NCBI GenBank assembly: GCA_964352425.1
Contig: CAYGRZ010000001.1
Span: 64,672-128,671 of the forward strand
DNA: 64,000 nucleotides
Source: an uncultured Planctomycetia bacterium
GTDB lineage: Bacteria > Omnitrophota > Gorgyraeia > 2-01-FULL-45-10
Reading direction: 5' to 3'
Shown here: in pieces, positions 2,333 to 43,657 of the stretch
Position numbering within the stretch: position 1 is the first letter of the stretch
Layout: each line of letters starts with the position of its first letter
Position numbers and translations under genes: made by a program
The notes under the pieces: generated by a model
The model's database searches: none
What the model was told of the DNA's origin: nothing
The model's input: the letters and a program-made list of their open reading frames with translations, nothing else

Positions 2333-3619
2333 ATGACACAGCTGGAGATGGCACGAGCCGGCAGGATATCCGCCGAGATGCGCCGCGTAGCGAAAGACGA
2401 AGCCTTAAGCGTCGAGTTCATCCGTCGCGGCATTGCGGCAGGGCGCATCGTCATCCCGAAGAACTGTCTTCGCCGCGTCGCGAAACCATGCGGCATAGGC
2501 TCAGGTCTCAAGACGAAGATCAACGCGAATATCGGGACGTCGAAAGGCCAGTCGAATATAGCGCGAGAGCTCAGGAAGATGGATGCCGCGGTCGGGCTGG
2601 GCTCCGATACGATAATGGACCTCTCGACCGGTAGAGACATAGCCGGGACCAGGCGCAGGATACTTCGAGCGGCAACGGTGCCGGTCGGCACGGTCCCTAT
2701 TTACGAGATCGTGATAAACGGCCTTAAGAAATACGGCCGTATAAAGGATATCACTGTCGCTGAGATGCTCGCCGTATTGGAGGTACAGGCCAAAGACGGC
2801 GTCGACTTCTTCACGATCCACGCAGGCGTCGTTCGTAGTGCGCTCGCTTCTTTGCGCGCCAACCCAAGGCTGCTCGATATCGTAAGCAGGGGCGGCGCAT
2901 TCCTCGCGCAGTGGATGATAGAGAACGCTCAGGAGAACCCGTTTTACACGCGTTTTGACGCCGTCATCGATATCGCGAGAAAATATGACGTCACGCTGAG
3001 CCTGGGCGACGGCCTGAGGCCGGGCGCCATCGCCGATGCAACCGACTGCCCGCAGGTCCTGGAACTGCTCACGCTGGGCCAGCTGCAGAAGAAGGCGACC
3101 AGGAGGGGCGTACAGGTCATGATAGAAGGCCCCGGCCACGTTCCACTCAATCAGATCGAGGCGAATGTTGTGATGGAGAAGGCGCTCTGTAGCGGCGCCC
3201 CGTTCTATGTGCTCGGACCGCTCGTCACAGATATCGCGCCCGGCTACGACCATATCACCGCGGCCATAGGCGGCGCGCTCGCGGGCGCGAAAGGCGCCGA
3301 CTACCTGTGTTATGTGACGCCGGCTGAACACCTGCGGCTGCCGACGCTTGACGATGTAAAAGAGGGCGTGATCGCGACCAAGATAGCCGCTCACGCGGCG
3401 GACGTCGCGAAGGGGCTGAAAGGCGCCATCGACCGTGATATCGCCATATCGAAAGCGCGCCGCGCGCGGGACTGGAAGCGACAGTTCGCGCTCGCGATAG
3501 ACAAGGTTAAGCCGACAAAGTACAGACGCTCGTCGCGGCCGGGCAGCAAAGACGTATGTACCATGTGCGGCGAATACTGCTCCATCAAAGTCGCCGATAC
3601 GTGTTTTGGGAGGAAATAA
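2333..3619 (+). CDS. thiC: phosphomethylpyrimidine synthase (radical-SAM ThiC)
   Basis: 428 aa; ThiC-type sequence with C-terminal CTMCGEYCSIK Fe-S motif; ATG directly after the thiE stop. Confidence 0.9.
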   Translation: MTQLEMARAGRISAEMRRVAKDEALSVEFIRRGIAAGRIVIPKNCLRRVAKPCGIGSGLKTKINANIGTSKGQSNIARELRKMDAAVGLGSDTIMDLSTGRDIAGTRRRILRAATVPVGTVPIYEIVINGLKKYGRIKDITVAEMLAVLEVQAKDGVDFFTIHAGVVRSALASLRANPRLLDIVSRGGAFLAQWMIENAQENPFYTRFDAVIDIARKYDVTLSLGDGLRPGAIADATDCPQVLELLTLGQLQKKATRRGVQVMIEGPGHVPLNQIEANVVMEKALCSGAPFYVLGPLVTDIAPGYDHITAAIGGALAGAKGADYLCYVTPAEHLRLPTLDDVKEGVIATKIAAHAADVAKGLKGAIDRDIAISKARRARDWKRQFALAIDKVKPTKYRRSSRPGSKDVCTMCGEYCSIKVADTCFGRK

Positions 3620-3642
3620 ATTTTTCGGCTACCCGGGGCGGT

Positions 3643-3660
3643 GAACTTTTGGGCACTCGC
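3643..3660. repeat. repeat module A (aacttttgggcactcgc), copy 1; copy 2 at 11298..11316, same orientation
   Basis: Identical 17-mer downstream of the thiC stop and downstream of the dgt stop. Confidence 0.6.
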
Positions 3661-3688
3661 CTCCGGCTGAGGATCGCGAAAATCTTCC

Positions 3689-3822
3689 GGGTCCTGCCGC
3701 TCGGTCGCCTTTCGGCGCTCGCGCGGGGTTCACAAGCGATGAGCTGACAGGCGGGTGTCTGTACTGCCCCATCCCGCGCTTCGCACCTCAAGGCTGGACC
3801 GAGCGTCACCCGTAAGATTTTC
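3689..3822. repeat. ~135 bp repeat module B, copy 1 (inverted relative to copy 2 at 11462..11650)
   Basis: Reverse complement of 3689-3822 aligns at ~80-85% identity with 11462-11595, sharing a core ...gcgggatggggcagtacagacacccgcctgtcagc...gtgaaccccgcgcgagcgc... Confidence 0.7.
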
Positions 3823-3856
3823 GCCTGCATATGATGATATCGGCAGTGCACAAAAG

Positions 3857-3886
3857 TTCCGCCACTCGAGGAAGCCGAATAATTTC
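3857..3886. repeat. repeat module C (ttccgccactcgaggaagccgaataatttc), copy 1; copy 2 at 11371..11400, same orientation
   Basis: ~30 bp near-identical segment in both loci. Confidence 0.55.
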
Positions 3887-3951
3887 TAAGAGTGGCTGAA
3901 GAATTGCTCCAGATACCGTCTCGGCTGTGAGGATGCTATAGGAGAAGTGAT

Positions 3952-4188
3952 ATGCCAGGGTATAGAGCTGATCCAGAAGAGATAAAAAAGGTGTTTTTAA
4001 TAGTTATTGGCATTTTCTTTTTTATAATAGGCGTTTTTTTTATTTTGCAACTTACCGGAGTTGCAAATATGGAGATATTTCGTAGTTCCGGTTTGGACTG
4101 GCTAAGAATTCTCTTATTTGTAATCGTAGTTATTCTGATTCTTTCTTTAGTATTTGGTATTTTGAAGAAGTTGTACGGTGATGAATAG
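3952..4188 (+). CDS. small two-TM membrane protein (hypothetical) in an AT-rich island
   Basis: 78 aa with two strongly hydrophobic helices; GGAG RBS 8 nt upstream of the ATG; local GC well below the window average. Confidence 0.4.
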   Translation: MPGYRADPEEIKKVFLIVIGIFFFIIGVFFILQLTGVANMEIFRSSGLDWLRILLFVIVVILILSLVFGILKKLYGDE

Positions 4189-4556
4189 CAAGGGGAGTGG
4201 CCATCCCGCGATAGAAGGGAAGTTTCTAGTATTTGAGATGGTCGCAGGCGGCGGGACTTTTGCGCGAAGCCTGAAGCGGCGAATTTAAGACCTATGCCGA
4301 TGTTATGTGAGCACAATGAAAATGTTAGGTCTTTTGTGAAGAAGAAAAAGGGTTATATATAAGGATTTTTCCATATTAAAAGAACCGAGGATGCCCGAGG
4401 CCGCTTCCATGCGGCCGAGTTCCGCAGGTTCCCCTTTTTCGACTGAGCAAAAGACCGACCTCGAGCGAAGCGAGAGGGAACATTTTCGCTGCCACCTTTT
4501 AGGAGGCTTGTGCGAACATAGCGAGGCATAGGTCTGGAAACAAAAAAAGGATAGCG

Positions 4557-5592: not shown

Positions 5593-5666
5593 GCGAGCGT
5601 AGTTCAATGGTAGAATACTAGCTTCCCAAGCTAGATACGGGGGTTCGATTCCCCTCGCTCGCTCCA
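5593..5666 (+). tRNA. tRNA-Gly (anticodon CCC)
   Basis: Cloverleaf folds by hand: acceptor GCGAGCG/CGCTCGC, D-stem GTTC/GAAT, anticodon stem CTAGC/GCTAG with loop TTCCCAA, T-arm GGGGG-TTCGATT-CCCCT, 3' CCA encoded. Near-identical in pattern to E. coli glyU. Confidence 0.9.
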
Positions 5667-10123: not shown

Positions 10124-11275
10124 ATGCTGAAGAGAAGGGACCTCGAAAAGAAGGAAAGCCTCCTCGCCCCGTATGCGCAGAAGAGCCGCATGACGAAGGG
10201 AAGGGTCTACAAGGAACCTGAGCACGGCTACAGGTCATGTTACCAGCGTGACCGTGACCGGATCATCTATTCGACCGCGTTCCGCAGGCTTGAATACAAG
10301 ACGCAGGTCTTCGTGAACCACGAGGGCGATTATTACCGGACGCGGCTCACGCACACGCTCGAGGTCAGCCAGATAGCCCGCGCGATAGCGCGCGCGCTGA
10401 AACTGAACGAGGACCTTGTCGACGCGATAAGCCTCGCCCACGACCTCGGCCACACCCCATTCGGCCATTCGGGCGAAGATGCCTTGAACGAGATGATGAA
10501 ATCCCACGGCGGGTTCGAACATAACGCCCAGGGCCTGAGGGTCGTCGACATCCTTGAGCAGCGCTACCCGGATTTCCCCGGCCTCAATCTCACGCATGAG
10601 GTAAGGGAAGGCATCATACGGCACTCCACCGCATACGACCGTCCGCACCCTGTCGTGCCGTTCACTACGAAAGGTTCGCCGCTCCTGGAGATTCAGGTCG
10701 TCGATATCGCCGACGAGATCGCGTACGATAATCACGATCTTGACGACGGCATCACGAGCGGCCTTATCAAGGAATCTGACCTGCGGCATATTAAGTTGTG
10801 GGCCGACAAGAAGAGAGCGATCGAGAAGAAGTACCGCTCGATCAAGGACGAGATACGGAAGTATCAGATCATCCGCTCGCTGATAAACGAGCAGGTCACC
10901 GATGTCATCTTCCGGACCGAGGCGAACATCCGCAGGCGCCGGGTCCGGTCGGCGGCTGATGTGGCGAAGATACCCGAAAGGATCGTCACGTTCTCGGACA
11001 CTATGCGGCTCTTGCGCCTGCCGATGCGCGAATTTCTCATCAAGGGCCTCTACCAGCATTACCGGGTCGTCAGGATGGCCAACAAGGCTTACCGCTTCAT
11101 AGAGAGCCTGTTCAATATTTATCTCGATAAGCCGGAGCAGCTTCCGCCGGGGACCCAGTCGAGGCTGAAGATTGAGTCAAAGCACCGCGTGATATGCGAT
11201 TACATCGCCGGCATGACCGACCGCTATGCGCTGGACGAGTACAAGAAGTTCTTTGAGCCGTACGAGAGGGTGTAA
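10124..11275 (+). CDS. dgt: dGTP triphosphohydrolase (Dgt-family HD phosphohydrolase)
   Basis: YRTRLTHTLEVSQIARAIA...HDLGHTPFGH HD motif, Dgt-like N-terminus; starts 5 nt after the HIT stop. Confidence 0.85.
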   Translation: MLKRRDLEKKESLLAPYAQKSRMTKGRVYKEPEHGYRSCYQRDRDRIIYSTAFRRLEYKTQVFVNHEGDYYRTRLTHTLEVSQIARAIARALKLNEDLVDAISLAHDLGHTPFGHSGEDALNEMMKSHGGFEHNAQGLRVVDILEQRYPDFPGLNLTHEVREGIIRHSTAYDRPHPVVPFTTKGSPLLEIQVVDIADEIAYDNHDLDDGITSGLIKESDLRHIKLWADKKRAIEKKYRSIKDEIRKYQIIRSLINEQVTDVIFRTEANIRRRRVRSAADVAKIPERIVTFSDTMRLLRLPMREFLIKGLYQHYRVVRMANKAYRFIESLFNIYLDKPEQLPPGTQSRLKIESKHRVICDYIAGMTDRYALDEYKKFFEPYERV

Positions 11276-11405
11276 TTTTTCCGCTTTTATCAGGGCGTTA
11301 ACTTTTGGGCACTCGCTTTTATTAGTTGAGCAAGCCCTTGCGGCCTGGGGGGATGGGGGCACGCTAAAAGCTCCGCCGCTCGAGGAAGCAGAAATATTTG
11401 TGGTA

Positions 11406-11434
11406 GGGCAGGTGAGCGAAAAGCGAACCTGCCC
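11406..11434. repeat. hairpin-repeat family member (stem GGGCAGG/CCTGCCC, loop tgagcgaaaagcgaa)
   Basis: Same conserved loop family as the copies at 11615, 18267 and 36439. Confidence 0.5.
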
Positions 11435-11461
11435 GATGAGGGGCTTAGGGCGAGCAAATTT

Positions 11462-11650
11462 TTACGGGTGACGCGAGGGGGCCTTGAGAAGCGCACAAGC
11501 GAGCGCGGGATGGGGCAGTACAGACACCCGCCTGTCAGCATGTCACTTGTGAACCCCGCGCGAGCGCGGAGCATCGCAAAGGACACCGAGCGGCACCTCG
11601 ACAAGCTCGGTGCTCGCCCTGAGCGAAGTCGAAGGGCGGCAGGACCCGTA
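11462..11650. repeat. ~135 bp repeat module B, copy 2 (carries a ~45 bp hairpin insertion at 11596-11640)
   Basis: Aligns to the reverse complement of 3689-3822; the flanks ggcaggacccg..aaaattt match across the insertion. Confidence 0.7.
11615..11638. repeat. hairpin-repeat family member (stem CGCCC/GGGCG, loop tgagcgaagtcgaa)
   Basis: Conserved 14-nt loop with a covarying stem. Confidence 0.55.
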
Positions 11651-11713
11651 AAAATTTCCTGCGACCCTGGCCTGTTACTAACAAGAGCCAGGGCAGACAA
11701 GCGGAAGGCAGCC

Positions 11714-11860
11714 ATGAAGTTTCTGATCATTACGGTATTGGCGTTAATGCTGTCCGGGTGCTCCAGCATCCGGATCAAGGAAGGCGGGCTCGCCGTCGGT
11801 AAAGATACGACTGCGACTGTGGACGACGTGGGAGTGGCGAGGGTGACCAACCAGTTCTGA
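11714..11860 (+). CDS. small lipoprotein (48 aa, hypothetical)
   Basis: MKFLIITVLALMLSGCSS lipobox signal peptide; internal start of ORF 11468..11860, whose upstream part lies on the repeat. Confidence 0.45.
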   Translation: MKFLIITVLALMLSGCSSIRIKEGGLAVGKDTTATVDDVGVARVTNQF

Positions 11861-11950
11861 CCCCTGCCGGGCGTATATAGCCTTCACGAAAAAGGCGTCC
11901 AAATAGGCGTTGACACGGCTTAAGCGTTCGCCGTATAATCGTTTACCGGC

Positions 11951-13480
11951 ATGGAAGAGACAAAGAACCATACTTATCAGAGGGAACTGTTCGACAGGCT
12001 GAAGAAGAGCCCCAGCCTCAAGAAGGCCCAGGAGTGCTTCGGCTGTGTCATCAAGCCGGCCGCGTGGTGGATCGTCGAAAAGCCCAGCCCGAAATTCGCG
12101 GACGTGCAGAAGCTCATCTGCGGCAACTGCCCCTCGGTAAAGAGATCATCCCCCAGGCAACTGCGCCAATGCGTGAAAGAAGTCCTCGGGATGCTTGCCG
12201 GGGCCGCCGAAGAGAAGCGGCTGATCAAGTTCGACTGCCCTGAAGGCATGCACGGGTTTATATGCCCGGTCATTCAGGCAGATAAGATATTCGGCTACCT
12301 GGGCGCCTGCTACGCCAAGAAAGAGATCTCGCCGCAGGTGCTTGAGATTTTCTCAGCGTTCATCGCCACGATCGTCAAAGAGGTGCAGAAGGAGCTGGAG
12401 CTCTCAAAGCTGTATGAGACGCTTCGGCCGCGCGCGATAGCCCTCTCGACCGTTCACACCGTCCACCGCCTGATCAGCTCGACGCTGGACTTAAACGAGC
12501 TGCTGCCGCGCATCGCGAGGCTTTCGCTCCAGGTCATGAGGGCCAACCGCTGTTCGATAAAGCTCGTCGACTCGAAGCGCAAGGTCCTGCTGCCGAAAGT
12601 CACCGTCGACCTCAGGGAAAAGAACATCAGGCTGAAGAAGGTGAAGGTTGGCAGGTGGGCGCCGGGCAAGGCCGTCAAGTTCGGCAGGCCGATACGCGGC
12701 CGCGACTACCTGGCCACACCGCTCATCGACGAGGACGTGATCGGCGTCATAACATTGTATGACAAGATCGACAAGAAGCCGTTCAGCATATTCGACCAGG
12801 AGATCATGTCGACTATGACCGAGCAGGCGGTCATAGCGATAAAGAACGCCCAGCTGTACAAGGAGCAGGAGAAGCTGACGATGGGCACGATCAAGGCGCT
12901 GGCCAAGGTGCTCGATACGCGCGCGCCCGGGACGTACATACCGCGCGCCTCATTTATAAAGATCACCCTTGCGATCGGGCAGGAGCTGCACATGGACAGC
13001 GACAGCCTGAAGAGCCTCCAGTACGCTTCGATCCTGCACGATGCCGGCGAAATATTCGTGCCCGAGGCCGTTCTCGCCAAGCCGGCGAAACTGACCGGCG
13101 CGGAGTACGATATGGTCAAGGAGCACCCGGCCGCGGGAGTCGAGATAATCAAACACATGAAGGCGCTCAAATCCGCAACGCCTATCATCCTGTACCACCA
13201 TGAAAATTACGACGGCACCGGATATCCGAAAGGCCTGAAGAAGGACCAGATACCGCTCGGCGCCAGGATTATGGCCGCGGTCAGCGCATTCGAAGCGATG
13301 ATAACGATGAAACCTTACAGGGTGACGAAGACGCTCGATGAGGCGATCGATGAGATAAAGGCCAACGCCGGCACCCAGTTCGACCCGAAAGTGGTCGAGG
13401 TGTTCCTGAAAGTGACAAAGAAGAAGGATATAAGGGCATTGCTCGAGAAAGAATTGTATGGACCTAAACCGGCTGCTTAA
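11951..13480 (+). CDS. GAF-domain HD-GYP phosphodiesterase (c-di-GMP) with a Cys-rich N-terminus
   Basis: HD...HHENYDGTGYPKGL HD-GYP signature with a GAF region upstream. Confidence 0.85.
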   Translation: MEETKNHTYQRELFDRLKKSPSLKKAQECFGCVIKPAAWWIVEKPSPKFADVQKLICGNCPSVKRSSPRQLRQCVKEVLGMLAGAAEEKRLIKFDCPEGMHGFICPVIQADKIFGYLGACYAKKEISPQVLEIFSAFIATIVKEVQKELELSKLYETLRPRAIALSTVHTVHRLISSTLDLNELLPRIARLSLQVMRANRCSIKLVDSKRKVLLPKVTVDLREKNIRLKKVKVGRWAPGKAVKFGRPIRGRDYLATPLIDEDVIGVITLYDKIDKKPFSIFDQEIMSTMTEQAVIAIKNAQLYKEQEKLTMGTIKALAKVLDTRAPGTYIPRASFIKITLAIGQELHMDSDSLKSLQYASILHDAGEIFVPEAVLAKPAKLTGAEYDMVKEHPAAGVEIIKHMKALKSATPIILYHHENYDGTGYPKGLKKDQIPLGARIMAAVSAFEAMITMKPYRVTKTLDEAIDEIKANAGTQFDPKVVEVFLKVTKKKDIRALLEKELYGPKPAA

Positions 13481-18217: not shown

Positions 18218-18253
18218 CGGTTATAACGGAAGACAGTAGAAGTCCTTCGGCGG

Positions 18254-18288
18254 GCTCAGGACATATATCCTGAGCGAAGTCGAAGGAT
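18254..18288. repeat. overlapping alternative hairpins: GCTCAGGA-catata-TCCTGAGC (18254-18275) and ATCC-tgagcgaagtcgaa-GGAT (18267-18288)
   Basis: Sits immediately 5' of the RBS (agaaggagg) of the 18302 gene; the conserved loop-family member shares CCTGAGC with a mutually exclusive upstream stem. Confidence 0.5.
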
Positions 18289-18301
18289 AGAAGGAGGAAC
18301 C

Positions 18302-18628
18302 ATGTCGCAACATCCGAGCCTGCGGTCATCAGAGAAGGATAAAAAGCACAGATCCGTGCTGAAGAGGTACGAAAGGGTCAAGCTCCTGAAAGAGAAGGAC
18401 AAGTGGGAAGAGAAGAAGGATTCGGTCTACGGCCTTCCGAAGGTCAAGATCATCCGCTTCAAGATCAAAAAAGAGAAGGCCGCCGCAGCGGCAGTCGAAG
18501 GCGCCGAAGGCGCGGCAGTACCGGGCGCAGCACCGGCAGTACCGGGCGCAGCGCCTGTCAAGGCGGCAGCTCCGGGCAAAGAAGCAGCAAAGCCGGCCGC
18601 TCCGGAGTCGAAGAAGCCTGCGAAATAA
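18302..18628 (+). CDS. small basic Lys/Ala/Pro-rich protein (hypothetical, possibly nucleic-acid binding)
   Basis: 108 aa with a strong AGGAGG RBS; K/E-rich N-terminal half and an Ala/Pro/Lys low-complexity tail. Confidence 0.6.
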   Translation: MSQHPSLRSSEKDKKHRSVLKRYERVKLLKEKDKWEEKKDSVYGLPKVKIIRFKIKKEKAAAAAVEGAEGAAVPGAAPAVPGAAPVKAAAPGKEAAKPAAPESKKPAK

Positions 18629-34621: not shown

Positions 34622-35593
34622 ATGGACCGCAAAAAGCTGGAAGCCGTAAAAAGGGCAAACGCCCTCCTTGGAAACTGCCTCAAAAGCTGCTCGATATGCC
34701 CGCGTACGTGCGGTGTCGACCGCACGGCAGGTAAGTCTGGCTACTGCCGCGCGGCCTTTAACTCCGTCGTGTACAGTTATTCGCCCCACCACGGCGAAGA
34801 GCCGCCGATATCAGGAACCAGGGGCTCGGGCACGATATTCTTCTCCCACTGCAATATGAAATGCGCCTATTGCCAGAATTACGACTTCAGCCAGCTCAAT
34901 AAGGGTGAGGAAGTGACAACCGACAAGCTCGCGGCGATGATGCTCTCGCTGCAGAAGAGAGGATGTCATAATATCAATCTCGTCACGCCGACGCATTACG
35001 TTCCGCAGATACTTGCCTCTCTCGAGATGGCGCTTGAGGGCGGGCTCGAAATACCCATTGTCTATAATACCAGCGGCTATGACCTGGTCGAGACTATCAG
35101 GGCCCTCGATGGGGTCGTCGATATTTACCTGCCCGACATGAGATACTCGGACGATACAATGGCAGGCAAGTACTCCGATGCGGTGCGGTATGTCGAGCAT
35201 AACCGGGCCTGTGTGCGCGAGATGCAGGCCCAGGTGGGGGATCTGGTAATGGACGGTACAGGCATAGCCAAGAGGGGGATCATCATCAGGCTCCTGGCGC
35301 TGCCGGGCGGTATTTCGGGCACGGAGCGGTCGCTGCGCTATATTCGTGAGCATGTCAGCCCTGGCGCTTATTTAAGCATCATGAGCCAGTACTATCCGAC
35401 GTTCAAGGCGCACCAGTACACGGAGATATCCCGCAGCATCTCCGTCGGAGAGTATAAGAATGTAGTTGACGCGGCGCATCTTTTGAGCTTAAATAAAGGT
35501 TGGATACAGGAAGCCCCCGAAGAATTTGAACCGAGATTTTTCGGCACTAACATCAAACCCACAATAGACCGCGATGGCAAAGAAGATCAGTAA
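34622..35593 (+). CDS. radical-SAM protein (PflX/activase-like)
   Basis: CNMKCAYCQN (CX3CX2C); the internal ATG at 34622 is used because the upstream extension of ORF 34307 is Arg-rich shadow. Confidence 0.8.
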   Translation: MDRKKLEAVKRANALLGNCLKSCSICPRTCGVDRTAGKSGYCRAAFNSVVYSYSPHHGEEPPISGTRGSGTIFFSHCNMKCAYCQNYDFSQLNKGEEVTTDKLAAMMLSLQKRGCHNINLVTPTHYVPQILASLEMALEGGLEIPIVYNTSGYDLVETIRALDGVVDIYLPDMRYSDDTMAGKYSDAVRYVEHNRACVREMQAQVGDLVMDGTGIAKRGIIIRLLALPGGISGTERSLRYIREHVSPGAYLSIMSQYYPTFKAHQYTEISRSISVGEYKNVVDAAHLLSLNKGWIQEAPEEFEPRFFGTNIKPTIDRDGKEDQ

Positions 35594-36287
35594 AAAAAGC
35601 TCATACGAAAAACATATAGAGGCCATATCGAAGGTCTCGCAATCGATCACGTCCAACCTCTACCTCGAAGATATCCTGAAGCTCATCGTCACCGTTACCG
35701 CGGAGATTATGGATTCAAAGATATGCTCTCTCATGCTTATAGAGCCAAAGACCGGCAGGCTCGTCCTCAAGGCAACCCAGTCGATGAGCGAAGAGTACAA
35801 TAAGAAGCCGACGCTCAAGATAGGCCAGGGCATAGCCGGTAAGGTAGCTCTCGAAAATAAGCCGCTCGCCGTCTTTGACATATCGGAAGAGCCGGAGTAT
35901 GTATCCAAGGATATCGCGACCAAGGTGGGCCTGCAGTCGCTTCTATCTGTGCCGCTCTCGGTCAAGGGTACGGTGATCGGCGTCCTGAATAATTATACCT
36001 CGCACCCGCATCGTTTTACCCAGTATGAGGTCGATATCATGACGACGGTGGCCAGCCAGGCCGCCATCGTCATCGAGAACGCCGAGCTTATGTTAAAAAC
36101 CAAGGTCATCCAGGATGAGCTTGAATCGCGGAAAGTCGTCGAGAGGGCCAAGGGCATCATGATGCGGCAGCAGGGCATGACCGAAGAAGAGGCCTTCCGG
36201 AAGATCCAGAAGCAGAGCATGGATATGAGAAAGACTATGCGCGAGATAGCAGAGGCGATAATACTTATCGAGAACATGAAGAAGTAG
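35574..36287 (+). CDS. GAF-ANTAR RNA-binding antitermination regulator
   Basis: GAF region, then an ANTAR helix bundle (RKVVERAKGIMMRQQGMTEEEAFRKIQKQSMDMRKTMREIAEAI). Confidence 0.8.
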   Translation: MAKKISKKSSYEKHIEAISKVSQSITSNLYLEDILKLIVTVTAEIMDSKICSLMLIEPKTGRLVLKATQSMSEEYNKKPTLKIGQGIAGKVALENKPLAVFDISEEPEYVSKDIATKVGLQSLLSVPLSVKGTVIGVLNNYTSHPHRFTQYEVDIMTTVASQAAIVIENAELMLKTKVIQDELESRKVVERAKGIMMRQQGMTEEEAFRKIQKQSMDMRKTMREIAEAIILIENMKK

Positions 36288-36320
36288 CCGGTTAGAATAA
36301 AAATAGCCGGCACAAGCCCA

Positions 36321-36349
36321 TTGACAATACTGCGTTTGATGCTATGCTG
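36321..36349 (+). promoter_or_regulatory. candidate sigma70 promoter (TTGACA-16-TATGCT) for the nadE leader
   Basis: Consensus -35; the -10 is weaker; ~180 nt leader to nadE. Confidence 0.35.
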
Positions 36350-36426
36350 TATATGATAAGCTCAAAGACAATGATGTCTTCCCGCTATGATAGCCGGAAG
36401 GCGTTTGTGTGTTTATCCTTCGACAG

Positions 36427-36468
36427 GCTCAGGATAAACACCCTGAGCGAAGTCGAAGGGTGTTTTAT
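36427..36468. repeat. alternative hairpins in the nadE leader: GCTCAGG-ataaacac-CCTGAGC (36427-36448) versus CACCC-tgagcgaagtcgaa-GGGTG (36439-36462) plus TTTTAT
   Basis: Member of the conserved-loop hairpin family; the second hairpin is followed by a U-tract (terminator-like). Confidence 0.5.
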
Positions 36469-36531
36469 GGGGACGCAGGCGTCCAGATCCCATGATGGGT
36501 ATGGACGCTTTCTGTTTAATAGGGTGAATCC

Positions 36532-38205
36532 ATGAAGCTCAGGTTGGCAATAGCACAGATCAATTGCACGGTAGGCGACCTTGAAGGCAACTGCAGGAAG
36601 GTTGCAGGATGCCTCGAGAGGGCCGGCGAGTTCGGTGTCGATTTGATCGCATTCCCGGAACTGGCGGTAACAGGCTACCCACCGGAGGACCTTCTGCTGA
36701 AACCGAAGTTCATCGCGGATAACATCGACGCGCTGAGGGAGACGGCCAAGTCTGTCGGTGACATGATAGCGGTCATAGGGTTCGTGAACCGCGTAGGCAA
36801 GGATATATTCAACGCCGCAGCGATCATTCACAAAGGCGAGGTAAAGGCGGTCTACCACAAGATGCTATTGCCGAACTACGGCGTCTTTGACGAGAACCGG
36901 TATTTCAAGCCAGGTTCAGCGCCAGGCGTGTTTAAGGCGGGCGGCATGGCATTCGGCGTCAATATATGCGAGGACATATGGCATAAGGCCGGACCGATAA
37001 AGGCTCAGGCTGCTGCCGGCGCAAGTCTTATCCTGAACATCAACTCTTCGCCATATCACGCCGGCAAAATGAAAGAGAGGGAAGACCTGATCAAGCGCGA
37101 GGCTAAATCAAACAATGTCTTTATAGCGTACGCGAACCTCGTAGGTGGCCAGGATGAGCTCGTATTCGACGGCCATAGCATCATCGTTGATCCGGCAGGA
37201 AAGATCATATGCCGCGGCCCGGGCTTCAAGGAAGACCTCCTCATGGTTGACCTCGATCTCCCGGCCCTCAAGACAAAACGTATAAAGAAAGCTGTCGAGA
37301 TCGCAAAGAAGTTTGAACCGAGACAGAAGAGGCCGCCTCTTACAAAGAATGAGGTAAAACCGCTCGATCCCGTCGCGGAGGTATATGAGGCACTCCTCCT
37401 CGGGCTTAAAGATTATGTAACAAAGAACGGGTTCTCAAAAGTCATTATCGGGATATCCGGCGGCATAGATTCTTCGCTCGTCGCCGTGCTTGCGGCCGAC
37501 GCGCTCGGCAAAGAAAATGTCACCGGCGTATTCCTGCCGACGCGGTATTCGTCGGAAGAGTCGGGACGCGACGCAAGCGCTCTTGCGTCCAACCTTGGGA
37601 TCAAGTATATAGAGATGTCTGTCGACCAGATCTACAAGTTGTACCTGATGGCGTTCGAGACCCAGTTCGTCGGGCTCGGCAGGGATATCACCGAGGAGAA
37701 TATACAGGCGCGCATACGCGGCAACATGCTGATGGCATTTTCCAACAAGTTTGGGTGGCTCGTCCTGACAACAGGCAATAAGTCCGAGATGAGCACCGGC
37801 TACGCGACGCTGTATGGCGACATGGCAGGGGGGCTGGCGGTCATAAAGGACGTGCCAAAGACGCTCGTCTACAAGCTTGCGAAATACAGAAATACGCTCG
37901 GGAAGGTGATCCCGGATGCCGTCTTTACAAAAGAACCCACGGCAGAGCTCAGGCCCGACCAGAAAGACAGGGATACGCTTCCCGCCTATGATGTGCTCGA
38001 CCCGATCATTAAAGCGTACGTCGAGGAGGATAAAAGCCCCGGCGAGATCGCTTCGGCCGGCTTTGACAGGGAGATTGTTGCGCGGGTCATTCGGATGGTG
38101 GATTCGAGCGAGTATAAGCGCAGGCAATCGCCGCCGGGCATCAAGATCACGCCCAAGGCGTTCGGCAAGGACAGGAGGATGCCGATAACGAACAGGTATA
38201 AATAG
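36532..38205 (+). CDS. nadE: glutamine-dependent NAD+ synthetase (nitrilase domain + NAD synthetase domain)
   Basis: N-terminal CN-hydrolase region and C-terminal SGGIDSSLVAVLA PP-loop. Confidence 0.9.
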   Translation: MKLRLAIAQINCTVGDLEGNCRKVAGCLERAGEFGVDLIAFPELAVTGYPPEDLLLKPKFIADNIDALRETAKSVGDMIAVIGFVNRVGKDIFNAAAIIHKGEVKAVYHKMLLPNYGVFDENRYFKPGSAPGVFKAGGMAFGVNICEDIWHKAGPIKAQAAAGASLILNINSSPYHAGKMKEREDLIKREAKSNNVFIAYANLVGGQDELVFDGHSIIVDPAGKIICRGPGFKEDLLMVDLDLPALKTKRIKKAVEIAKKFEPRQKRPPLTKNEVKPLDPVAEVYEALLLGLKDYVTKNGFSKVIIGISGGIDSSLVAVLAADALGKENVTGVFLPTRYSSEESGRDASALASNLGIKYIEMSVDQIYKLYLMAFETQFVGLGRDITEENIQARIRGNMLMAFSNKFGWLVLTTGNKSEMSTGYATLYGDMAGGLAVIKDVPKTLVYKLAKYRNTLGKVIPDAVFTKEPTAELRPDQKDRDTLPAYDVLDPIIKAYVEEDKSPGEIASAGFDREIVARVIRMVDSSEYKRRQSPPGIKITPKAFGKDRRMPITNRYK

Positions 38206-38250
38206 TAGTACCGTATCTCAACGCTGAGATAGGATCCCAAAGAGCAAAGA

Positions 38251-38289
38251 TGCCCTTTTGGCGCATAGAAACGCGCAAAAGGGCTTTTT
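38251..38289 (+). terminator. rho-independent terminator of nadE
   Basis: GCCCTTTTGGCGC-ataga-aacGCGCAAAAGGGC followed by TTTTTAT. Confidence 0.6.
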
Positions 38290-38447
38290 ATTTGAGCACA
38301 TGACTTATGGAGCCGAAGGCGACATAAGTCATGTGTGCGAAAAAAATCCGCCGACTAGTCCTCCGAAGCCAAGCCTGACCAAAGACATTCACAGGCGAAG
38401 GAGGAAGCCAATCTTGACAAGAACCATGCAACGGCGAAGGCGGATGA
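38283..38447 (+). repeat. leader repeat R1, copy a (palindrome CACATGACTTATG-N13-CATAAGTCATGTG plus a conserved 3' block), upstream of the sigma-factor gene
   Basis: ~80% identical to 43503-43657, with compensatory changes in the palindrome arms. Confidence 0.7.
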
Positions 38448-38995
38448 AGAAGGTGGTGGTCACGATGTACAAGCGATTCGATGAGATGATGAAGAAGCTG
38501 TCACCGACACTGCGGGGCATAGCGCACCGCATGAACGGCCATTTCACGTTCTTCACGGATGATGACCTCTACCAGGAAGCGCTCGCGCATCTGTGGGCCA
38601 GTTTCGGGAGAGGCGCCCTGAGGGACAAGACGGATAGCTACATTCTCCAAGGGTGCTATTTCTACCTGAAGAACTACCTGCGCACCTCTCTCGACAAGGC
38701 AAAACTCGTGAGCCTGAGCGAGCTCATCGACGGTCAGGACGTTTCTATCGAGGAGTCGCTCGCATCGAAGGATACGAATGCGCGCGACGATTTAGATGCA
38801 GGACTTCTTGCGGAAAACATCGTATTCAAGAGTCTGGACGCGCGGGAGAGGCTGGTCCTGCGGTACTCGACGGAAGGCCTTACGATCAGAGAGATAGGTA
38901 AGCGCCTCGGCGTTTCCCACGTCATGGTGGTCAAGATAAGGTCGAAGATACGGAAAAAGTGCGATGCATTAAGACGGGGTGGGCATCATGGTTAG
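38444..38995 (+). CDS. RNA polymerase sigma factor (small sigma-70 family, ECF/SigH-like); start 38444 or 38465
   Basis: Region-2-like DDDLYQEALAHLWASFGR and region-4 HTH LTIREIGKRLGVSHVMVVKIRSKIRKK; the 5' part of ORF 38258 lies on the nadE terminator and is rejected. Confidence 0.65.
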   Translation: MKKVVVTMYKRFDEMMKKLSPTLRGIAHRMNGHFTFFTDDDLYQEALAHLWASFGRGALRDKTDSYILQGCYFYLKNYLRTSLDKAKLVSLSELIDGQDVSIEESLASKDTNARDDLDAGLLAENIVFKSLDARERLVLRYSTEGLTIREIGKRLGVSHVMVVKIRSKIRKKCDALRRGGHHG

Positions 38996-43363: not shown

Positions 43364-43520
43364 GGTTACCAAGCGAGGCTCCTTTTTACTTGTATAGTTG
43401 TAAGACCGGTTTTTAGGCACATTGTAGTGCATAAGTAGGCAAAGACGTTTATTTGAACATAGGCGTTCAGTTTGGTCAATGAGTATGACCAAAATGAGCG
43501 CTTTTTTATTTGAGCACATA
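43364..43520 (+). repeat. nitrogen-leader repeat, copy d (upstream of glnA; contains GCAC-attgta-GTGC and a TTGGTCA/TGACCAA hairpin)
   Basis: Aligns with 41578-41700; merges 3' into repeat R1 copy b. Confidence 0.6.
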
Positions 43521-43657
43521 ATTTATGGAGCGATAGCGACATAAATTATAAGTGCGAAAATAATCCGCCGACTAGTCCTCCGAAGCTTCGCAGAGTCTAT
43601 GAGTAGAAGCGAAGGCGGAAGCCAATCTTGACCAGAAACATACAACGGCGAAGGCGG
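43503..43657 (+). repeat. leader repeat R1, copy b (palindrome CACATAATTTATG-N11-CATAAATTATAAGTG) upstream of glnA
   Basis: Direct repeat of 38283-38447. Confidence 0.7.

Follow-up and report, generated by a model that had tools for sequence, protein, structure and literature searches.

The window examined here is a stretch of 64,000 nucleotides (nt) from an uncultured bacterium of the Omnitrophota (contig CAYGRZ010000001.1, positions 64,672 to 128,671), in which a palindrome of 40-45 bp occurs three times, always between genes: in the leader of nadE, in front of the gene at 18302 and in a spacer at 11.6 kb. The three sites are likely to be copies of a mobile insertion with a direct-inverted-direct signature of its target, and not of a conserved regulator. 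The element is a non-autonomous mobile palindrome, similar to the repetitive extragenic palindromes (REPs) and the MITEs (miniature inverted-repeat transposable elements), and its inherited parts are two distinct arms, here called X and X'. It enters a short target, F, of ~3-8 nt and leaves the arrangement F-X-rc(F)-X'-F, in which rc(F) stands for the reverse complement of the target. An earlier note on this DNA had described the sites as hairpins with a conserved 14-nt loop and co-varying stems, and had proposed either a cis-regulatory RNA or a REP as their nature. The REP part of that proposal suits a short, repeated and mainly extragenic palindrome; the cis-regulatory RNA part is not supported, since orthologous nadE leaders, although otherwise conserved, do not contain the element and copies are also located after genes and inside recA.

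Arms, folding and target signature

The 14-mer TGAGCGAAGTCGAA is found exactly three times in the window (at 11620, 18271 and 36444) with internally complementary stems around it. The stems listed in the earlier note are present, with 9, 6, 6 and 8 bp at 36436-36465, 18266-18289, 11615-11638 and 11406-11434, respectively, and the weaker relative placed near 4440 corresponds to a 4-bp stem at 4459-4477. The window contains 10 hairpins with the layout 'stem, followed by GAGC-N-(G/T)CGA or complement', versus ~0.45 expected (the mean of 0.89 in shuffled sequences counts every hairpin on both strands). The division into loop and stem has to be redrawn. The conserved block, CCTGAGCGAAGTCGAAGG (arm X'), measures 18 nt and occurs exactly at 11618, 18269 and 36442, each time on the + strand, where 0.03 occurrences are expected by chance; the inner CC(T)/(A)GG of each 'covarying stem' is part of this block.

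Upstream of every exact 18-mer, at a distance of 7-8 nt, lies a near-complementary arm, X, with the consensus CCTTCGAC-AG-GCTCAGG. It reads CCTTCGACAGGCTCAGG at 36417-36433 and CCTTCGGCGGGCTCAGG at 18244-18260, and has decayed to CCTCGACAAGCTCGG at 11596-11610, while X' is unbroken in all three copies. An upstream GCTCAGG(A) that can pair with CCTGAGC, as had been proposed, therefore exists, and the full partner is the whole arm CCTTCGAC-NN-GCTCAGG; the GCTCAGG/CCTGAGC pairing forms the inner half of the long X/X' stem. The general plan of the arms is CCTTCGAC-N2-4-GCTCAGG for X and CCTGAGC-GAA-GTCGAAGG for X', and a search anchored in the other arm revealed that each arm consists of two conserved half-sites (CCTGAGC and GTCGAAGG) with a variable spacer of 2-4 nt. 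The element thus possesses terminal inverted repeats (CCTTCGAC...GTCGAAGG), which are extended inward by GCTCAGG/CCTGAGC.

Together X and X' fold into a single long hairpin with a small internal loop (AG versus GAA), and this hairpin is the minimum free energy (MFE) structure, with -29.2, -31.1 and -25.6 kcal/mol at the nadE, 18302-leader and 11.6 kb sites, respectively. The short hairpins of the earlier note reach -17.5, -11.7 and -20.2 kcal/mol at the same sites when forced. The folding z-scores of the two strongest copies (-29 and -31 kcal/mol) are -5.9 and -6.6. What had been described as a '14-nt loop' is thus an arm of a larger palindrome. These energies bear directly on the possibility of a cis-regulatory RNA switch, in which the conserved-loop hairpin and an alternative hairpin would compete to control termination (nadE) or translation (18302 gene): the alternative pairings exist, and mutually exclusive hairpins can be drawn, but the long hairpin wins by 5-19 kcal/mol.

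The target signature is clearest in the nadE copy (all features described here are on the + strand). A left direct copy of the target, GTGTTTAT (36409..36416), located in the U-run of the first terminator of the leader, is followed by X (36417..36433), by the centre ATAAACAC (36434..36441), which is the exact reverse complement of GTGTTTAT (8/8), by X' (36442..36459), which pairs with X in the MFE hairpin and holds the '14-nt loop', and by a right direct copy, GTGTTTTAT (36460..36468), which equals the TTTTAT tail of the earlier note. In the copy before the 18302 gene the direct repeat TAGAAG (18237..18242 and 18288..18293, the latter overlapping the region of the ribosome binding site, RBS) encloses a G.T variant of X (18244..18260), the centre ACATATAT (18261..18268), matching the reverse complement of the flank ATAGAAGT in 6/8 positions, and X' (18269..18286). 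In the 11.6 kb copy the direct repeat is GCGGCA (11590..11595 and 11636..11641), the decayed X (11596..11610) is followed by the centre TGCTCGC (11611..11617), and X' occupies 11618..11635; the reverse complement of this centre, GCGAGCA, resembles the flank GCGGCA with one extra base (6/7). Exact 6-nt direct repeats (GTGTTT, TAGAAG and GCGGCA) are thus found within 2 nt of the element ends in all three cases, for which the null probability is 0.004 per site, and the nadE repeat extends to 8-9 nt with one indel. Overall, the window copies are flanked by direct repeats of 6-8 nt, and the centre of 7-8 nt is the reverse complement of the repeat.

The same relation was observed outside the window. 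A metagenome scan for doublets of the window type yielded 74 unique doublets among the matches listed, in which the reverse complement of the centre is 61% identical to the left and 63% to the right flank, versus 37-38% after permutation of the centres (1000 permutations, with 46% as the highest value). The reverse complement of the centre differs from both flanks by at most one mismatch in 29 of these 74, and 49% of them lie between direct repeats of 4 nt or more, compared to 6% when the flanks are randomly re-paired. The length of the direct repeat tracks that of the centre, and the pairing between centre and flank is strongest in the 4 nt adjoining each arm (66-92%). Almost each copy has an F of its own, as do the three in the window. 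It follows that F must be determined by the individual insertion event, and the centre is most likely written anew each time. The left and right flanks are identical even where the centre mismatches (the 18302 copy and the foreign doublets L168 and L234).

The doublets are also informative on the arms and on the short stems. The middle of X is usually AG and that of X' GAA, from which it follows that X' is not a copy of X. Arm mismatches on the strand that runs from X to X' comprise 19 G.T and 2 A.C (13 of the 19 G.T being one variant); this excess implies that the X-to-X' strand folds in single-stranded form, a pattern that single-stranded DNA and RNA would produce alike. Either flank is able to pair with the inverted centre, which is why the short hairpins with 'covarying' stems appear around either arm. 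In these short flank/centre stems of the 74 doublets G.T and A.C mismatches are about equally frequent, so there is no RNA-type wobble signature, and the mismatch pattern fits exact templating better than selection for RNA pairing. The stem covariation that had been considered the hallmark of a functional RNA can thus be traced to the duplicated target, present twice in direct orientation and once as the inverted centre.

Two further hairpins on the + strand carry the same kind of cap; their membership is uncertain. The single hairpin GGGCAGGT[GAGCGAAAAGCGA]ACCTGCCC (11406..11434) has the same GA-GC-loop-GC-GA cap and lacks both half-sites, and the weak relative CCTC[GAGCGAAGCGA]GAGG (4459..4477) follows the same cap plan.

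Filled and empty sites

The neighbourhood of nadE is syntenic in relatives whose NadE proteins are 81%, 78% and ~70% identical to that of the window. In an alignment of the window with three relatives, L123, L125 and L126 (alignment A1), the nadE promoter, the hairpins and the U-runs align, and a block of 51-52 nt with the element is present only in the window; the NadE identities of the relatives that lack it here are 81% and ~70%. In a fourth relative, L124, the intergenic gap before nadE measures just 51 nt. The gene at 18302 matches TIGR04137 (Chlamydiae/Verrucomicrobia small basic protein), and its leader in three relatives consists of 12-76 nt of unrelated sequence without the element. 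Likewise, the spacer between the dGTPase gene and the lipoprotein gene is essentially absent in L128, versus 440 nt of repeat-rich DNA in the window. No copies of the element were found in ~120 kb of syntenic DNA from Omnitrophota relatives. This absence at orthologous sites rules out a conserved leader element. The position of the nadE copy, inside a transcribed leader, downstream of a good promoter and followed by UUUUAU, had spoken for the RNA switch, but the alignment identifies the TTTTAT tail as the duplicated U-run of the ancestral first terminator, which was there before the element.

A second pair of filled and empty sites, from a different phylum, was found in recA, the filled site being that of a Daviesbacteria-like bacterium of the candidate phyla radiation (alignment A2: L177, filled, 10593-13010, also represented by L142 and L219; L351, empty, 601-2964). 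In L177 the doublet, 45 nt long and in frame, is inserted behind codon 8 of recA, a gene that contains an intein, and lengthens the protein by the peptide VLRQAQDNPERSRRI; the homologue in L351 is 86% identical and is without the doublet. The empty site reads AAAAAATTGAAAAAG and the filled site AAAAAATTG-T-X-ACAAT-X'-ATTG-AAAAAG, such that the target ATTG (F = 4 nt) is present in a single copy at the empty site. At nadE and recA alike there is one pre-existing target, and what the insertion adds is the pair of arms plus two further copies of the target, one inverted and one direct.

We propose that, in the course of insertion or repair, the target would serve as the template of the centre, which would not be inherited. 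In a more detailed version the arms would be joined to a staggered cut in the target, each free 3' arm end would snap back on its self-complementary CCT/AGG termini and copy the duplicated target, and the resulting complementary tails (rcF and F) would anneal, after which the flaps would be trimmed. Such a snap-back model would account for the equal length of centre and duplication; in this specified form we nevertheless regard the chemistry as doubtful. The element would be moved by an enzyme acting in trans, which would recognise the half-sites on DNA in single-stranded or extruded form.

Distribution and competing explanations

The exact 18-mer is present in at least 120 genome loci on GTDB contigs (one genome per species, 596 Gb), whereas ~17 are expected by chance. 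The loci belong to Acidobacteriota, Bacteroidota, Alphaproteobacteria, Patescibacteria, Chloroflexota, Verrucomicrobiota, Planctomycetota, Cyanobacteria, Omnitrophota and other groups, isolates included, and a further 101 viral contigs of IMG/VR carry the 18-mer as well; phages may help to carry the element between phyla. Complete genomes with the core include that of Flavobacterium anhuiense FLA4 and chromosomes of Henriciella. The foreign 18-mers, recovered by exact-match patterns, form the core of various larger repeat families (e.g. CGTTCGC-core-GC, TGTCAC-core and AGCCTGC-core), and one extra closing base pair is constrained, with 79% Watson-Crick pairs versus 15-27% in slid registers (C-G 60, T-A 34, T.G 18, G-C 10, C.A 4). 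Long variable stems or duplications at the edges of foreign single 18-mers were considered and rejected, as only this one extra pair is constrained and direct repeats are lacking. Some doublets are nested inside other arms.

The copies in other genomes are mostly intergenic, at a median of ~60-70 nt past the end of the upstream gene and ~80 nt before the start of the downstream gene (positions based on crude open reading frame (ORF) calls), and they occur as often after genes as before them, i.e. without a leader preference. Their orientation is biased ~2:1 towards the sense of the neighbouring gene. The families that recur near the copies are the ubiquitous ones (sigma-54 activators, histidine kinases, ABC/UvrA and SDR proteins).

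The 18-mer is found in other arrangements too. Head-to-tail arrays, which differ from the doublets, have a 24-nt period in one metagenome-assembled genome each of the Alphaproteobacteria and the Acidobacteriota and a 118-nt period in L100 (L015 358-423; L068 ~2530-2600; L100 7616-7869). In L098 (2705-4721) two inverted 18-mers flank a group II intron (ORF with RVT_1 and GIIM domains, 3173-4549), and the sequence GTGCG starts 9 nt past the first 18-mer hairpin. Class C group II introns are known to home just downstream of stem-loops (PMC1702495). The arrangement in L098 agrees with such homing, and by analogy the 18-mer repeats may serve as landing sites for group II introns.

Several observations weigh against a mobile insertion. 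No mobility gene or transposase family recurs within 2.5 kb of ~240 foreign copies (~3100 ORFs), a weak argument where single-copy REP-associated tyrosine transposases (RAYTs) are concerned, and a full-length X...X' parent element was not found in 2.7 Mb of repeat-rich loci, where none of 12 candidates had flanking repeats. The length of the duplicated target, 3-8 nt and variable even within the window, is odd for a DDE transposase with a fixed stagger. The comparison of filled and empty sites is based on two pairs, and the snap-back and annealing step is speculative. The sense bias leaves room for some selection at the level of RNA or of the replication strand. Finally, the apparent invariance of X' is partly an effect of ascertainment, given that copies recovered via the other arm differ in the 2-4 nt between the half-sites; an arm-anchored scan of viral sequences, meant to lift this bias, gave one hit only.

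The alternative that survives best is compatible with mobility. The element might be a REP-like sequence that the host retains for a function at the DNA or RNA level, for instance as a stabiliser of mRNA 3' ends, a terminator or a site for a host protein, with mobility being secondary. The exact core across phyla with its covarying closing pair, the location near gene ends, the unbroken X' next to a drifted X, and the stable cap plan (tandem G.A pairs, a 2-bp GC helix and a GAA loop) all suit such a role. However, sister genomes do without copies, so no lineage-wide function is required, a copy is tolerated within the coding region of recA, the conservation is in part a matter of ascertainment, and no candidate binding protein was identified. 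As the primary explanation we consider host retention rather unlikely.

Transposition of single-stranded DNA, as in the IS200/IS605 insertion sequences or in paired REPs (REPINs), would make X-rc(F)-X'-F the mobile unit, with the centre as an inherited guide that pairs with F, the left F as the target, the right F as the end of the element and the flanking repeat as a pseudo-duplication. In IS608 the guide tetranucleotides base-pair with the cleavage-site tetranucleotides, and the element resembles this system in its imperfect one-strand hairpin with internal loop and G.T wobbles, and in the short sequence next to the hairpin that pairs with the flanking target. The peak of the centre-flank pairing beside the arms, and the inserted lengths of 51 nt (nadE) and 45 nt (recA), which equal X plus centre plus X' plus one F, are in line with this scheme. 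An inherited guide, though, predicts recurring targets, whereas F differs in almost every copy; the flanks agree with each other at sites where the centre mismatches; and neither a Y1/HUH gene near the copies nor a GTAG/CGTC tag was seen. Moreover, the target tetranucleotide of IS608 is reportedly fixed and is not duplicated, and IS608 codes for its own TnpA, while the targets of the element vary, both flanks carry the target and no TnpA gene accompanies the copies. We therefore think it unlikely that the element moves in this manner.

The doublets could also represent immobile excision scars of a larger transposon with X and X' as its termini, in which the gap would have been repaired with the target in inverted form. 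P-element footprints arise in a comparable way, as staggered cleavage leaves nucleotides of the element ends (17-18 nt in the present case) at the donor site. The succession of duplication, 17-nt end, filler, 18-nt end and duplication recalls such footprints, and X and X' differ consistently, as the two ends of a parent would. The missing parent element and the lack of a recurring transposase, both noted above, argue against this origin, as does the variable length of the duplication, and the doublets nested in other arms fit repeated insertion of a small unit. It is thus improbable that the copies are scars. As candidates for a parent transposon, three X'...rc(X') pairs lying 2-3.4 kb apart were discarded: they enclose a group II intron, phage structural genes and an oxidoreductase.

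The RNA switch is the least tenable reading and highly improbable: the 18302 copy does end 4 nt before the RBS and the doublets share the sense bias, but alignment A1 largely refutes it with the absence of the element from otherwise conserved leaders, copies occur after genes and once in frame in recA, the stems are target duplications without an excess of G.U, and no Rfam match was obtained even at permissive thresholds.

The latter search covered the element, the nadE leader and the foreign copies (the gathering threshold for the whole window; permissive thresholds for 11200-11950 and 36250-38450; 18 foreign loci). The only Rfam match in the window is a tRNA gene at 5593-5663 (71 bits). The literature was searched by DNA strings, by encoded peptide strings and by topic, and no description of the element was found. 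The hammerhead and other small ribozymes, the K-turn, lambda boxB and integron attC were considered, seemed a poor fit and were set aside, and the same holds for lox/dif-type core sites, restriction-site mimicry and the likeness of GCTCAG-NNN-GAACG to the 5' end of 16S rRNA.

Host loci and relation to known repeats

Judged by the sequence alignments, the real regulatory parts of the nadE leader are those common to the relatives. The attenuator-like leader (36321-36531), shared with L123, L125 and L126 and not represented in Rfam, is located downstream of a GAF+ANTAR gene (35574-36287). It starts with a sigma-70-type promoter (36321-36348), followed by a hairpin with a hexaloop, AAGAC-AAUGAU-GUCUU (36365-36380), the 3' strand of which overlaps the stem of the first terminator (GUCUUCC/GGAAGGC plus U-run, 36376-36402), and by a second antiterminator/terminator pair, in which GGACGC-AG-GCGUCC (36471-36484) competes with GCGUCC...GGACGC plus U-run (to 36517). 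The leader may belong to an ANTAR-controlled nitrogen/NAD regulon. The nadE copy splits the U-run of the first terminator, and the insertion may have changed the control of nadE in this lineage. In another sample of the same species (L121) the X arm carries a single-nucleotide polymorphism, CTTTCGAC, and a 50-aa ORF has been called across the element (452-604, corresponding to window positions 36343-36495); this ORF is very probably spurious. The metagenomes ERR3804373 and ERR3804374 contain the organism of the window.

At the two other sites the surroundings are simpler: the 18302 copy lies downstream of a stop codon and upstream of the RBS that follows, and the 11.6 kb copy lies in the repeat-rich spacer mentioned above. 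In this spacer (11276-11713) 440 nt of non-coding DNA separate the dGTPase gene from a small lipoprotein ORF (11714-11860); the two genes abut in L128. It contains nested inverted repeats, for instance AGCAAATTTTTACGGGT (11453-11469) with ACCCGTAAAAATTTCCT (11644-11660), and looks like an accumulation site for palindromic insertions. The window copies are probably passengers, and if the added stable hairpin affects nadE or the gene of the small basic protein, this would be incidental.

Two more hairpins with a GA-GC-loop-GC-GA cap (38294-38340 and 43512-43557) do not belong to the element; they are part of a different conserved leader. This second leader of ~130 nt (38283-38420 and 43503-43635, + strand; L123 6240-6330) precedes a GerE/sigma70_r4-like gene and a type III glutamine synthetase gene in the window, and nadE in L123. 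Its long hairpins, with the cap GGAGC-loop-GCGAC, display compensatory stem changes between the copies, and a predicted CCUCC...GGAGG helix after the hairpin would sequester the RBS. The second leader has no match in Rfam, and its known occurrences are confined to the window and the closest relative.

The nadE copy has features of an intrinsic terminator or ANTAR attenuator, namely a stable GC-rich hairpin followed by UUUUAU in a leader downstream of a GAF-ANTAR gene. The conserved parts of the attenuator, however, are the flanking hairpins common to the relatives; the element is inserted into the U-run of the first terminator, and a simple terminator scan does not call it. The ANTAR targets described by Ramesh et al. 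in 2012 are reportedly dual hairpins with hexaloops (A at position 1 and G at position 4) that overlap a terminator. The loops of the element (11-12 nt) differ from this plan, and the candidate hexaloop hairpin is found in the flanking leader instead.

The element is best grouped with the short non-autonomous palindromic repeats, yet it fails defining features of both REPs/REPINs and MITEs. REPs are imperfect palindromes of 20-40 nt; in E. coli and Pseudomonas, REPs and REPINs are mobilised by RAYTs, Y1 (HUH) transposases whose gene usually has REPs on its sides. With REPs and REPINs the element shares a small size, multiple copies in mostly extragenic positions, the imperfect palindrome without autonomy and strand-specific folding, and with REPINs in particular the two inverted units in one long bulged hairpin. 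REPINs are described as lineage-specific and mostly vertically inherited (PMC3337134; bioRxiv 10.1101/2022.05.22.493013), whereas the core of the element is identical across many phyla and viral contigs and absent from sister Omnitrophota. In REPs one end is marked by a conserved tetranucleotide, either GTAG or CGTC (PMC3733652). Neither tag is found at the ends of the element, where the arms start with CCTTCGAC and end with GTCGAAGG and the flanks are variable target. It also differs from REPs and REPINs in its flanking direct repeats and target-complementary centre, and no RAYT was seen near the copies.

With the bacterial MITEs (e.g. Correia/CREE, RUP, ERIC and Nezha) the element has in common a lack of autonomy, terminal inverted repeats, flanking target duplications, empty sites and a location next to genes, and like the Rickettsia palindromic elements (RPEs) it is occasionally tolerated in frame inside ORFs, as in recA. 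It is, however, ~3-10 times smaller than these elements, consisting of just two arms of 17-18 nt; its duplication of 3-8 nt is not fixed, no parent insertion sequence was found, and its interior is an inverted copy of the target and not inherited.

It is possible, though on balance we lean the other way, that the element represents an undescribed class of mobile DNA, in which the two arms, with half-sites common to bacterial phyla and phages, are the only heritable parts and the target is triplicated in direct-inverted-direct order; that the insertion chemistry is new we hold to be about as likely. If true, the integration or repair pathway, whether by arms only with snap-back or by target-templated rewriting of the loop, would be unlike that of the known insertion sequences, MITEs, REPINs and IS200/IS605 elements. 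The core shared across phyla, together with the target-templated centre, suggests an as yet unrecognised, widely distributed DNA-mobilising activity, and the signature F-X-rc(F)-X'-F offers a simple handle for recognising the element. This would be of use in annotation, as the 18-mer and its relatives yield stable hairpins, terminator-like signals, spurious small ORFs and in-frame peptides such as that in RecA, and recognition of the element prevents mistaking it for a riboswitch or a gene.

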